A DNA stretch of 64,000 nucleotides, taken from the NCBI GenBank assembly GCA_965215505.1, contig OZ244065.1:3360001-3424000 (forward strand). The letters are read 5' to 3'. The stretch is from Capsulimonadaceae bacterium. Its GTDB lineage: Bacteria; Armatimonadota; Armatimonadia; Armatimonadales; Capsulimonadaceae. The notes below the pieces were generated by a model that searched no databases, was not told the DNA's origin, and saw only the letters and a list, made by a program, of their open reading frames with translations. How positions within the stretch are numbered: position 1 is the first letter of the stretch; every line of letters starts with the position of its first letter. A program made the position numbers and the translations under genes. This document shows, piece after piece, positions 22,578 to 25,668 of the stretch.

Positions 22578-24394
22578 CGCGGTGTTCCCTCCCCGACGTG
22601 CAGCGTCCGCCGTGGGTTGATTAGCAGGATCGTCCTGCCGCCCGTCGTCTTGCGGTCGGCACCGCCGAGGATGGCCGCCTTGACCTGGGCGACCGTCAGG
22701 GCGGGGCGGGCGGCGAGGAGCTTGGCCGCGAGGTTCGTCACCTGCGGCGCGGCCATGCTGGTGCCGCTGAGTTCCAGGGTCGCCCCGCCGGGGACGAGGC
22801 TGGGGACGTCCACACCGTCGGCGTACACGTCCACGCTGCCGAACGAGGTGAAGGAGGTTTCCTCGCCGCCCTTGTCCACCGCGCCGACGACCAGCAGGTT
22901 CGGTGCCTTGACCGAGGCGGGGTAGCTGCCGTTGAACAGGACGTCCTCATCGTCGTTGCCCGCCGCCGCGACGAACAGGATGCCGGGCGCGCTGCGGATG
23001 GCCTCCAAAATGCCCTGAAAGCCGATGTCGTAGGTCTTCCGCGCCAGCGCCCGGCGCTCGGCGGGCGTGCCGCCGTCCATGTCCAAATCCGTCTCAATGT
23101 CGCTGATGCGGACGTTCCAGCTCATGTTGACGACCCGCACGCCCCTCTCTTTGAAGTAGGCGACCCCCTGGCGGAACATGGCTGCGGCCCGCCCCGCCTG
23201 CGCGACCGAGGGTGCCCCGTCAAAGGTCATGCGGCAGACCAGCAACCGCGCGGCGGGGTTGCCGCGCAGGGCGACGCCGGCGACATGGGTGCCGTGGGCG
23301 TAGCTCTCGTACCCACTGAGGCCCTCGTCGAAGTCGTGCATCTGCTCCGAGGTCATGCCCGCGATTCTGGCCTTGAGGGCGGCAGCCTCGGGGCTGTCTC
23401 TTCCGGCGGCTAGGTCAGAAGTGCCCTTCATCTGGGCCTGACCGGTGGTGGCCGCCGCCGCGCCGCCGGGGAGCGGGTAGAGCAGGTCGTTCGTCGGCTG
23501 TTCCTGTGCGTCGTAGGCGATGCCGGGCGATCCGGAAACAAGCTGGGGCCGATACAGGCTGACGTCAACGCCCGAGTCCCAGACGGCGACGGTCACGGGC
23601 GTGAGCTTCGCTGACGGGGCAAGTGTCACGTCGCGCGCCGCCCAGATGTCCGGTTGCGGGACGTCCCGCCCTGCGTCCAGGGCCGCAGAGAAGGCGGCGG
23701 CAAGGTCGGCCTTGTTGGGGACGATGTACTGGAGAACGAAAGCCTCATGGAGCAGACCATCCGCCTGCTCCTGGCTGATGGAGCCTGTTGTGGCGGCGGT
23801 GTCGGCATCGTCGGCATAAGACGCAACAAGCACGTCGCGTGAGAGGACCTCCAGCACCTGACTTTGCTGCTTCAGGCTGTCCCGCGCCAGACCGTAGGGC
23901 ACGGCCCTGTAGGCGCGCTTGATGTCGGCCCGCAAGGCCTGGTGGAAGTCCGTGCCGGGGCTTTGCAAAGCATCGAGCAGCGCCCCACCCAACAGCCCCG
24001 ATGTGGCCTTGTCGATGGGCTTGTCTTCCAGACCCTGGACCATCTTGATGTCCCTACGGGCGGCGGCGAAGTCTTTCCGCAGGAATGCTGCGTTCCCCAG
24101 CGTGCGGTACAGCCCGCGCAGGGTGGCCCGGTCTGTGATGTCATACCTAGCGAGGTCGGCGGTGATGTCGGCGCTGACGGCGGCGGCCAGGACCGAGACG
24201 ACCTCGGGGTCTTCCGCCAGCGGGCGGACTTTGCTGGTGACGGCGTAGGCGTGAATCGGCAGGTCGGCAGCGCTGCTGACCTTGACGCGGCCATCCGCCT
24301 GGGCGCTCGCCGGCACCCCAAGCAGGGCGAGGGCGAGCAGCAGCGAACACGCCGCGCCCTCCCCTCCTACTCTGACTCCTAGCCTCGTCTTCAC
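22574..24394 (-). CDS. Secreted S8 (subtilisin-like) serine peptidase
   Basis: Catalytic motifs 'VAVWDSGVD', 'HGTHVAG', 'AAAGND', 'SGTSMAAPQV'; signal peptide; 4-bp overlaps with both neighbours. Confidence 0.9.
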   Translation of the reverse strand: MKTRLGVRVGGEGAACSLLLALALLGVPASAQADGRVKVSSAADLPIHAYAVTSKVRPLAEDPEVVSVLAAAVSADITADLARYDITDRATLRGLYRTLGNAAFLRKDFAAARRDIKMVQGLEDKPIDKATSGLLGGALLDALQSPGTDFHQALRADIKRAYRAVPYGLARDSLKQQSQVLEVLSRDVLVASYADDADTAATTGSISQEQADGLLHEAFVLQYIVPNKADLAAAFSAALDAGRDVPQPDIWAARDVTLAPSAKLTPVTVAVWDSGVDVSLYRPQLVSGSPGIAYDAQEQPTNDLLYPLPGGAAAATTGQAQMKGTSDLAAGRDSPEAAALKARIAGMTSEQMHDFDEGLSGYESYAHGTHVAGVALRGNPAARLLVCRMTFDGAPSVAQAGRAAAMFRQGVAYFKERGVRVVNMSWNVRISDIETDLDMDGGTPAERRALARKTYDIGFQGILEAIRSAPGILFVAAAGNDDEDVLFNGSYPASVKAPNLLVVGAVDKGGEETSFTSFGSVDVYADGVDVPSLVPGGATLELSGTSMAAPQVTNLAAKLLAARPALTVAQVKAAILGGADRKTTGGRTILLINPRRTLHVGEGTPR

Positions 24395-24954
24395 TGCTTC
24401 CCCTCGTCCCCGGCCCGAAAGCCCATCCGCCGCTCCGGGGCGGGCGGCGCTTCGATCAGCAGGCGGATCGCCTCAAAGACGACAGCGAACTGCTCGTCAT
24501 ACTTCTGTTCCAGGGTCAGGATGCGCCGTGCCAGGTCGCCGTCCTGCGTCAAAGCCCCGCGCAGGCCGACGAAGGCCCGCATGATGGCGATGTTGACCTG
24601 CACGGCGCGCTCGCTCCGCAGGACGCTCGACAGCATGGCGACGCCCTGCTCGGTAAAGGCGTAGGTTGGCTTGCGGCGTCCACCACGCCCAGCGTTTGAT
24701 ATCACAGTTTGTGATATCAAAACCGTTGCCTCCTCGTCTGTCAACTGGAACATGAAATCATTCGGGAAGCGGGTGCCATTCCGTTTCACCGCCTGATTGA
24801 GTGTGCGTGTATCGACACCATACAGTTCCGCCAAATCGCTGTCCAGCAGCACATTCTGGCCGCGCACGGTGTAGATTCGCCGCCCAACTTGCTCCGGCGC
24901 GATGACCGCCAATTCGGCCCCTTCTGTCCGGTCGTTCTCATCCTCGTTCGCCAT
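24391..24954 (-). CDS. ORF6N domain-containing DNA-binding protein
   Basis: 'IYTVRGQNVLLDSDLAELYGVDTR.LNQAVKRN..RFP.DFMFQLT', 'YAFTEQGVAMLSSVLRSERAVQVNIAIMRAFV'; ATG 24954 with GGAGG site. Confidence 0.93.
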   Translation of the reverse strand: MANEDENDRTEGAELAVIAPEQVGRRIYTVRGQNVLLDSDLAELYGVDTRTLNQAVKRNGTRFPNDFMFQLTDEEATVLISQTVISNAGRGGRRKPTYAFTEQGVAMLSSVLRSERAVQVNIAIMRAFVGLRGALTQDGDLARRILTLEQKYDEQFAVVFEAIRLLIEAPPAPERRMGFRAGDEGKQ

Positions 24955-24982
24955 GATTGCCCTCCCTGGTCTTCGCTTTGAT

Positions 24983-25037
24983 CTTGAAGTCACAATCTGT
25001 GACTTCAAGTTTGAGATCCCAAATTGGGATCTCAAAC
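24983..25037. repeat. Two tandem 27-bp perfect palindromes matching a palindrome inside the ORF6N gene
   Basis: CTTGAAGTCACA-ATC-TGTGACTTCAAG (24983-25009) and GTTTGAGATCCCA-AAT-TGGGATCTCAAAC (25009-25037); third copy TTTGATATCACA-GTT-TGTGATATCAAA at 24695-24721. Confidence 0.9.
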
Positions 25038-25038
25038 G

Positions 25039-25668
25039 CTAGTCCTTATCATACCAGATAAGGTAGCGCTGCGTCAGGTCTTTGATGATGCTGTACGGGG
25101 CCTCGGCGCAGCGCTCGCCCCGGAAGAGGAACGTCGGGACGTGCGTCACGTCGGCGGCGTAGGCGTCATCGTCGAAGCGCACGATCTCGTCATAGTACGC
25201 CTTGGACGAGACGGCCGCGTGGAATGCCTCCCGGTCTAGGCCCGCCCCTTCCGCCAGACCGCCCAGCACTCCGAGGTCGCTGATGTCCTCGGACCGCTCC
25301 CAGAAGGCGCGGTAGACGGCCTCATTATAAGCATCGAACCGCTCCGGCTCTTTGTCCTGCGCGTAGGCCGCCCCTTCCAGGGCGTAGTGCGTGCGGATGA
25401 CGGCGATGGTCCGCCCCTCTGGCACGGGGGCACCCTCCGCCCGCGAGAATAGCTCGAAGCGCGACGGCGGCGCGTCGGGGTCTTTGGGCTGCGGCTTGAA
25501 GTCCGGCAGCGGACCCAGTTCCTCGGGCAGCAGCTCGAACCCGCGCCAGACCTGCCTGATCTGCGGGAACTCTTCGCGCAGGCGCTTGGCCTGGATGAAG
25601 CCGACCCAGCACCAGGGGCAGAGATAGTCATGGCCGATGGTCACGGTCAGGTTTTTGTCTTGAGGCAT
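25039..25668 (-). CDS. DsbA family (FrnE-like) thioredoxin-fold oxidoreductase
   Basis: 'HDYLCPWCWVG' CXXC; 'FELLPE'; 'VTHVPTF' cis-Pro motif; ATG 25668. Confidence 0.88.
   Translation of the reverse strand: MPQDKNLTVTIGHDYLCPWCWVGFIQAKRLREEFPQIRQVWRGFELLPEELGPLPDFKPQPKDPDAPPSRFELFSRAEGAPVPEGRTIAVIRTHYALEGAAYAQDKEPERFDAYNEAVYRAFWERSEDISDLGVLGGLAEGAGLDREAFHAAVSSKAYYDEIVRFDDDAYAADVTHVPTFLFRGERCAEAPYSIIKDLTQRYLIWYDKD

Follow-up and report, generated by a model that had tools for sequence, protein, structure and literature searches.

Palindromes inside ORF6N genes covary with a predicted recognition helix, pointing to a binding site for the encoded protein

The window analyzed here, 64,000 nucleotides of contig OZ244065.1 from a Capsulimonadaceae bacterium (positions below are counted within the window), carries a gene for a 187-residue ORF6N protein that is preceded by two short palindromes and contains a third within its coding sequence (CDS). 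The product matches the Pfam ORF6N family (PF10543) with an E value of 7.6e-34 and 116.3 bits, well past the curated cut-off of 27.8, and the alignment covers residues 26–111 and profile positions 2–86 of 86. By profile search, this match is unique in the 6,177,771-base genome. The neighbors of the gene encode a DsbA-like protein (upstream) and an S8 peptidase, and 84 bp separate the ORF6N CDS from the DsbA-like stop codon. The features on which the analysis turns are as follows.

24391–24954, minus strand: ORF6N gene, 187 aa, stop codon at 24391–24393 (open reading frame [ORF] list, Pfam, PADLOC, conserved Shine-Dalgarno sequence and ATG).
24695–24721, no strand: CDS palindrome, class A, core TCACA...TGTGA, codons L79–N87; 12/12 arm pairs; putative cognate site.
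24707–24709, no strand: central triplet of the CDS palindrome, GTT on the plus strand; AAC in a near-identical strain, changing T83 to F.
24781–24810, minus strand: predicted recognition helix TRTLNQAVKR, codons 49–58, with Q54 at 24793–24795 and R50 at 24805–24807 (AlphaFold2 model).
24960–24968, minus strand: Shine-Dalgarno sequence CAGGGAGGG, conserved in same-genus loci.
24983–25009, no strand: near-cognate palindrome, the proximal one of the upstream pair, 29 nt 5′ of the ATG; 12/12 pairs; A10 and A6, but G7.
25010–25036, no strand: distal upstream palindrome, core TCCCA...TGGGA (R/K54-type); perfect arms.
25048–25077, minus strand: promoter-like site, −35 CTGACG at 25077–25072, 18-nt spacer, extended −10 TATGAT at 25053–25048 (consensus scan).

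An initial annotation, generated by a model from the letters of the window, had described three perfect palindromes here, two of them in tandem with a 27-bp period inside an 84-bp upstream gap. Examined arm by arm, both the palindromes and this layout were confirmed. The arms of the CDS palindrome (24695–24706/24710–24721) and of the proximal copy (24983–24994/24998–25009) are 12 nt long, fully complementary, and separated by 3 nt, and those of the distal copy extend to 14 nt (25009–25022/25024–25037). Start to start, the CDS and proximal copies are 288 bp apart and the two upstream copies 27 bp. The upstream pair fills most of the 84-bp gap and is in frame with the CDS, reading LRSQFGISN and LKSQIVTSR. 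A consensus pattern built on these sites has three matches in the window versus 0.02 expected, a number reached in 0/100 shuffles. The genome-wide scan that the initial annotation had suggested recovered the same three and one non-symmetric match with two mismatches (a backwards control gave 0), so that every symmetric match in the genome lies at the ORF6N locus.

ORF6N is a large family (32,726 cluster representatives at E ≤ 0.001) found in bacteria of many phyla and in phages. The CDS palindrome was followed in a pooled set of 116 distinct genes, drawn from same-genus loci, 80 genome loci (>20 phyla) and 80 viral loci (each collection being the best 80 of ~600 or more matches, 45–73% identical to the query alignment), and in an independent set of 77 fresh, non-redundant genes from metagenome contigs. 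It occupies the same codons in 113 of the 116 pooled genes, one of the remainder having a decayed copy and two having none, and in 77/77 metagenome genes. The arms are perfect in 31/67 genes of the first set and in 39/77 metagenome genes. Palindromy and covariation in other ORF6N genes, proposed earlier as a check, are therefore family-wide properties.

The symmetry far exceeds what the encoded peptide requires. Arm pairing in the first 67 genes was 11.28 of 12 pairs, compared with 5.2 under synonymous resampling, which upholds the earlier argument that protein-level selection cannot explain the mirrored arms. Swapping arms between genes left 8.3 of 12 pairs, with a maximum of 8.9 in 2000 permutations, and control ranges in the same genes gave pairing of no more than 6.6. 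Across 98 distinct rows, 95.0% of 1176 cells pair, versus 76.4% in shuffles (0/500), and a slid-partner control paired 22–43% of cells; nine of the twelve arm pairs vary on both sides. The first base of the third palindrome codon is T in 110/111 genes although Ser, Phe, Cys or Tyr is encoded there, and the residues at codons 3 and 6 are paired as complementarity demands (S-V, S-A, F-G, C-G, Y-G). All 122 family-type copies have a 3-bp centre, and the GC content of the 27-mer is 0.38 in loci of >60% GC and 0.35 in loci of <45%. Mismatches numbered 9 sense, 17 antisense, and 22 other in CDS copies and 22, 28, and 35, respectively, in upstream copies, with G-U cells making up ~15/1176 versus 59 other non-pairs; the lack of a sense-strand G-U excess indicates that the symmetry is not mRNA-specific. 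These computations show that selection acts at the nucleotide level on the CDS palindrome. It is a clear case of DNA-level selection overriding protein, in which Ser, Phe, Cys, and Tyr alternate and the site stays symmetric. In one subfamily (alignment A2; e.g. L039, L043, L046, L086, and L089) the arms reach 16 bp, CCAACTTGAA...TTCAAGTTGG, so that the flanking Asn and Trp codons also fall within the palindrome.

The identity of one base in each arm follows that of a single residue in the predicted recognition helix. The residue aligned with Q54 tracks base 10 of the palindrome (the N of TC-N-CA), with Gln accompanied by A in 80/80 genes, Arg or Lys by C in 19/19, and Glu by G in 11/11. This rule fits 110/111 genes and all 77 metagenome genes, or 187/188 together, and by covariation it divides variant ORF6N proteins into three classes with distinct sites (Q54/A, R-K54/C, and E54/G). 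When column 54 and the palindrome-encoded columns were left out of tree building, the resulting tree required at least 22 switches of residue class and at least 22 of base. Independent contrasts on supported branches all point in the same direction (Q/A 6/6, R-K/C 5/5, E/G 2/2), as do the 21 Q/A contrasts obtained on all branches. At the orthologous genus locus, Q54 occurs with TCACA in 11 cases, R54 with T-N-CCA in six, and L54 with TTTCA in one. A second pair links K50 to G at position 7 (33/33 genes, and 39/40 in the metagenome set), for which ~6.2 of seven independent contrasts run the same way and none the opposite way. As controls, positions 6 and 7 showed no association with Q54.

The chemistry of these pairs matches that of direct readout. 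Residues 50 and 54 lie one helical turn apart and positions 7 and 10 three base pairs apart, and codon 54 is 75 nt from the site. Classical direct-readout pairs are Gln with adenine, Arg or Lys with guanine on the other strand, and Glu with cytosine on the other strand. Our calculations show that residue and base co-evolve; the chemistry of the pairs, together with the agreement in the independent metagenome set, speaks for a real link. Given that residues 54 and 50 track bases 10 and 7, the CDS palindrome can be read as the cognate site of the gene's own product. For the resident protein (R50, Q54, K95), the predicted bases are A7, A10, and T or A at position 6. The CDS copy agrees at all three positions; the proximal copy agrees at 6 and 10 and has a mismatch (G) at 7; the distal copy has G at position 6 and the R/K54 signature C at position 10, making it non-cognate for Q54. 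No R/K54-class ORF6N protein is encoded in the genome that carries this C-type copy. The same order, a C-type distal copy followed by an A-type proximal copy, recurs in two related genomes (G015 and G006). In G006 (locus L015) the tandem pair, also of 27-bp period, lies ~1.07 kb upstream of the gene, and the ~0.8 kb of extra DNA between the operator pair and the gene resembles an insertion.

A structural model is compatible with this assignment. AlphaFold2 predicts (mean pLDDT 79.7) a helix-turn-helix (HTH)-like pair, helices 38–45 and 49–58, followed by a wing. The palindrome-encoded peptide forms the end of helix 73–82 and runs into a low-confidence loop, a location in keeping with how readily it tolerates odd residues and inserted units (see below). 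A wide VIA-align search returned winged-HTH DNA binders (best Z 6.7, all below the tool's trust level), and matches to MerR-type and Par DNA-binding domain folds were weak (Z 3.3–4.8). A sequence search of solved structures gave no homologue (coiled-coil matches, none better than E 0.07, were at chance level), and Foldseek found nothing in the PDB at E ≤ 0.001, the top match being a Ski/Dachshund domain (E 0.065). The homodimer prediction score of 0.25, against a mark of 0.42, counts neither way.

The gene is present in 25 of 61 related genomes, including 21 of the 23 other same-genus genomes, and its upstream region in the genus has a set order: a box, TGGTATGAT, then zero, one or two palindromes, then the Shine-Dalgarno sequence and ATG. 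This box, which we read as an extended −10 element, is kept in same-genus loci, three of which have a different upstream gene, and the upstream copies begin 11 nt past it. Conservation of the Shine-Dalgarno sequence and ATG across same-genus loci identifies 24954 as the true ORF6N start. Computation thus shows the upstream copies to sit between a conserved −10-like box and the Shine-Dalgarno sequence. In the window, the promoter-like site overlaps the last codons of the DsbA-like gene; the consensus scan gave three promoter-like sites versus 0.1 expected. A 7-bp inverted repeat (25043–25062, CCTTATC-6 nt-GATAAGG) overlaps both the −10-like box and these same codons; the relatives inspected do not share it. 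A terminator reading of the upstream hairpins was rejected, with 0 terminator-like sites and no T-run.

Within relatives, the CDS copy keeps a constant distance from an FTEQG motif, and the one or two upstream copies lie ~250–331 bp from the CDS copy, in frame 0, 1 or 2. The earlier observation that the upstream copies are in frame with the CDS thus holds in this window and is not conserved; as relatives use any frame and the real start is marked by the Shine-Dalgarno sequence and ATG, the in-frame reading is incidental. The multiplicity of palindrome copies, unlike their frame, recurs. Upstream-to-CDS spacings in the genus loci (250–331 bp) share no common helical phase of the kind relevant to DNA looping. 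Upstream palindromes are less perfect than CDS palindromes within the genus, and an identical CDS copy occurs in three loci though the proteins are only 71–78% identical. In locus L007 (G005), a third, decayed palindrome with three mismatches lies ~420–490 nt upstream of the FTEQG anchor; it adjoins a short stretch like the 5′ coding part of ORF6N and resembles a partial front-end duplicate.

Three close relatives (L023, L024, and L025, from G013, G017, and G016) have no upstream copy and instead carry three in-frame units within the CDS at a 51-nt period. Their units are split by unalignable 8-residue linkers; the last unit alone follows the residue-54 class of the protein, and the two extra units are A-type in all three loci. 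The L025 gene has an in-frame TAG at codon 4, right after the start codon, possibly making this ORF6N copy a pseudogene unless translation begins elsewhere.

Extra copies are tied to ORF6N loci. The frequency of flanking copies was a check proposed by the initial annotation: 14/68 loci carry an extra copy, at whatever position, versus 0.4 copies expected by chance, and among 36 relatives all symmetric matches are at ORF6N loci except for one orphan pair in G049; both same-genus genomes without an ORF6N match also lack a symmetric match. The G049 pair (L196, G049:C281; 1468–1492 and 1751–1775) consists of two perfect ORF6N-type palindromes with no ORF6N gene nearby. It brackets a ~258-bp long-inverted-repeat element next to a 451-aa McrC-like ORF and may represent two orphan sites that a small insertion has separated. 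In other phyla, upstream extra copies lie 216–311 bp 5′ of the CDS copy. Several metagenome genes (L313–L392) have an extra copy just past the stop codon, +321 to +340 from the CDS copy, which makes the post-stop position a second recurrent place for extra copies besides the upstream one. A scan of viral sequences with the core pattern gave 92 distinct hits among the matches listed, of which 34 were inside an ORF6N-profile match, six were beside one, and 52 were near none. Among these listed matches, nine of the 21 longest open frames of the 52 had ordinary phage Pfams (UvsW helicase, baseplate, portal, ribonucleotide reductase), and the flanking pair was complementary in 27/52 versus 40/40 ORF6N-associated hits; most of the listed non-associated hits look like chance matches in AT-rich DNA.

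A near-identical strain shows one palindrome in inverted form. A contig from run X4 differs from the window at 4/634 bases. Three of the changes (G>A, T>A, and T>C at 24707–24709) amount to an exact inversion of the CDS 27-mer, turning the centre from GTT to AAC and Thr83 to Phe, so that a three-base inversion alters a residue between near-identical strains. The fourth, a C>A at 25031, falls in the distal copy and has no compensating change on the other arm, which indicates that mirroring is not instantaneous. The inversion shows that the arms interact during replication. Across the family, the centres of 111 genes comprise only eight triplets, forming four reverse-complement pairs, with AAT or ATT in 75/111, and a conserved Gln becomes His in the TTT centre alone, TTT being the flip of AAA. 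Of the swapped or inverted forms that the initial annotation had envisaged, in-place inversion was thus found in one strain, and no swapped form appeared in the contigs of four runs, in which rare variants are invisible. Replication template switching is described, in passages of Klaric, Perr, Lovett 2020 (PMC7202029), as making imperfect inverted repeats perfect or more perfect. Copying of one arm from the other in such quasipalindrome mutagenesis fits the mirrored changes, the X4 inversion, and the reverse-complement pairing of centre triplets in the family. It is a mutational mechanism and not a function, and it leaves the conserved core and the residue-base code unexplained.

Taken together, these results lead us to favor, at a probability of about 0.7, the reading that the 27-bp palindromes are binding sites of ORF6N-type winged-helix proteins and that the CDS copy is each gene's own cognate site. 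The protein would act as a dimer on linear duplex DNA, with the recognition helix (49–58) placed in the major groove of each half-site, where residue 54 would read position 10 and residue 50 position 7. A symmetric protein would force each change of specificity onto both arms; arm-to-arm template switching probably speeds this mirroring and would also explain how the centre triplet came to be inverted. With the site embedded in the CDS, protein and site would stay inseparable. The most likely purpose is self-recognition, in the form of autoregulation and/or of an identity tag along the lines of BstA's aba element (discussed below). With two copies directly after the conserved −10-like box, upstream occupancy would be expected to repress the gene. 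The distal R/K54-type copy might be a remnant, or a place where a foreign ORF6N protein docks; upstream copies in general may have been left behind by class switches or may serve ORF6N proteins of another class.

Several points weigh against this reading. The whole case is built from comparative sequence, and the promoter is a candidate identified as a consensus match. Upstream copies fit the residue-54 rule of their own protein in 16/34 and 7/9 cases, near the class-frequency expectation, and they match their own CDS copy at 16.9/24 positions versus 16.5/24 for the copies of other loci, with no position enriched. In the window itself, the distal copy is non-cognate and the proximal one mismatched at position 7. 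The argument for autoregulation via the upstream sites is therefore less strong than that for the CDS palindrome as a cognate site. The proposal that ORF6N binds these sites as operators, one of three offered by the initial annotation, is favored for its residue-54 code and for the placement of the upstream copies, and is less secure where upstream autoregulation is concerned. The code has its own complications. Outer arm positions 1–5 also vary in mirrored fashion, and the associations of these positions with residues 90–95 may reflect linkage; the array region of the closest Q/R trio could not be aligned; and an N-terminal module comprising codon 54 and the site could have moved by recombination and so inflated the switch count. 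Finally, covariation cannot separate a dimer on linear duplex from a monomer on the stem of an extruded hairpin.

A DNA hairpin of that sort, extruded as a cruciform or formed in single-stranded DNA, with the ORF6N protein or another factor recognizing its conserved apex and reading one stem, and with selection maintaining the pairing as such, is in our judgment unlikely. It would account for the many perfect Watson-Crick arms (31/67 and 39/77 genes), for an apex-proximal core that is conserved while the outer stem is variable yet paired, and for a less constrained centre pair (complementary in 43/67). The mismatches have no strand bias, so that the two strands would adopt the same fold; a monomer reading the stem would produce the residue-base covariation just as well; and the inversion in the near-identical strain shows that the arms interact in replication. 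Most centres, however, are symmetric to the middle base (AAT/ATT in 75/111), which a hairpin does not need, and the centre length is fixed in 122/122 copies, as a dimer requires, although a strict hairpin also fits. The chromosomal locus shows no sign of a single-stranded life stage, and 12-bp arms around a 3-nt centre are near the lower size limit for extruding a cruciform. It is very improbable that the palindromes act in the mRNA, as two hairpins in the untranslated leader and one in the coding part that steer stability or translation. The mismatches show no excess of G-U-compatible changes on the sense strand, the element inverts without loss, copies occur after the stop codon and as orphans, and tracking of a base pair by a helix residue suggests B-form major-groove readout. 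Rfam 15 gives no relevant family, its one hit being a chance-level miRNA match (E 0.9) outside the palindromes. On the other side, a transcript begun at the −10-like box would include the upstream copies, and folding of the 131-nt leader gives two hairpins (z −4.65, 0/200 shuffles as stable).

The arms might also be a functionless by-product, in which the peptide happens to be coded by a near-palindrome that template switching perfects and the upstream copies are duplications. Template switching does perfect inverted repeats (parts of PMC7202029), the exact inversion in a strain with one other difference in 634 bases shows such events to be frequent, and within the genus the upstream copies have poorer symmetry than those in the CDS. 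We nevertheless give this account very little credence. Homogenization cannot hold the same AT-rich core across hosts of 35–70% GC, retain T at the first position of codon 3 through Ser, Phe, Cys, and Tyr, or link base 10, in 187/188 genes, to a residue whose codon is 75 nt away, and non-coding copies stand at a recurrent place. The two other proposals of the initial annotation, donor cassettes that enter the CDS by swapping or inversion and so vary nine residues, and a small mobile hairpin spread by ORF6N, now seem barely credible. In-place inversion does change a residue (T83F) in the near-identical strain, some relatives repeat the unit in frame within the CDS, three times with a 51-nt period, and the orphan G049 pair surrounds a 258-bp inverted-repeat element. 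Cassette exchange is nonetheless left unsupported by the absence of a swapped form from the contigs of four runs, though contigs hide rare variants, by upstream copies in any frame in relatives, by a CDS copy identical in three loci of 71–78% identical proteins, and by flanking genes that are DsbA-like and S8 peptidase, not recombinase or reverse transcriptase. The mobile hairpin is likewise unsupported, as the genome has no dispersed copies (three, all at the locus, in 6.18 Mb) and the 36 relatives, the G049 pair aside, have none away from ORF6N loci.

Two further observations concern the setting of the gene. The ORF6N stop abuts the GTG that opens the 606-aa S8 peptidase ORF (24391–24394), which suggests co-transcription or translational coupling. 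GC content is 0.50–0.58 over 24600–25200, the 5′ half of the gene plus its leader, versus ~0.68–0.70 in the flanks, a dip due in part to the three AT-rich palindromes.

The protein also matches profile models of PDC-S05, a PADLOC candidate single-gene anti-phage family. Three of its models matched, PDLC04869 (E 1.2e-55), PDLC04856 (E 1.5e-50), and PDLC04849 (E 3.7e-35). The PADLOC scan returned PDC-S05 models alone, the presence of a BstA model in the library not having been checked, and Pfam gave ORF6N plus a weak Phage_pRha match, with KilA-N not matched. One PDC-S05 representative, described with a RhuM domain, lowered T7 and T5 plating ~1000-fold; the preprint passages describing it give no mechanism or cis site (bioRxiv 10.1101/2024.09.26.614923).

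The closest system in logic, by resemblance and not by membership, is BstA-aba. BstA is an abortive-infection phage-defence protein with a predicted N-terminal KilA-N-type DNA-binding domain, and its aba element is a 63-bp sequence that spans the start codon, depends on terminal direct repeats (CCCGCC), and acts as DNA (passages of Owen et al. 2021, PMC8585504). In the same passages, aba is shown experimentally to give self-immunity to the induced prophage, and variant BstA proteins each have a cognate element. The ORF6N gene resembles this arrangement, so far as those passages describe it, in having a short DNA element within or over its own gene (27 bp at codons 79–87, in 113/116 and 77/77 relatives) and in having variant proteins with their own elements, in ORF6N by covariation and not by assay. 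The ORF6N element differs from aba as described there in being a mid-gene 27-bp palindrome at fixed codons, whereas aba spans the start codon and depends on direct repeats, and the ORF6N gene is chromosomal, between DsbA-like and peptidase genes.

Other comparisons are more distant. Operators of classical winged-helix or HTH dimers, such as those of MerR type, are usually imperfect palindromes outside coding sequence, and sites inside the gene of their own binder include parS in parB and lambda ori in gene O. The ORF6N sites share with classical repressor-operators a palindromic site, a helix residue that would set a base preference, a position next to a candidate promoter, and linkage of site to gene. 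Unlike them, the ORF6N palindrome stays perfect or nearly so at a single codon position in >20 phyla, at the expense of amino-acid identity. Mobile hairpins resembling repetitive extragenic palindromic sequences or miniature inverted-repeat transposable elements are dispersed, whereas the three copies here are all at one locus, and cassette or inversion diversification systems are unlike this locus in both neighboring genes and donor-sequence variants, none of the latter being seen in the four-run contigs. Passages of PMC10111431 treat ORF6N as one domain of the Bro network. In the ORF6N literature searched, no description of the palindrome was found, the term occurring only within the CRISPR name, in agreement with the initial annotation, which knew of no such description.

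As a more tentative extension, which we think possible but on present indications doubtful, ORF6N genes may constitute a self-addressed recognition system. Each gene would carry its own operator in frame and a programmable code in which residue 54 sets base 10 and residue 50 sets base 7, copies of a foreign class would dock phage or plasmid ORF6N proteins, and the family as a whole would form a network of palindromic identity tags akin to BstA-aba. If so, host and mobile-element ORF6N copies would sense, silence or exempt one another. If the palindromes are indeed ORF6N sites, they would offer a compact natural example of switchable DNA-binding specificity, with a one-residue/one-base code held within its own reading frame. 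They would suggest that self-recognition is central to ORF6N function, and they would provide a testable handle on what ORF6N proteins recognize.

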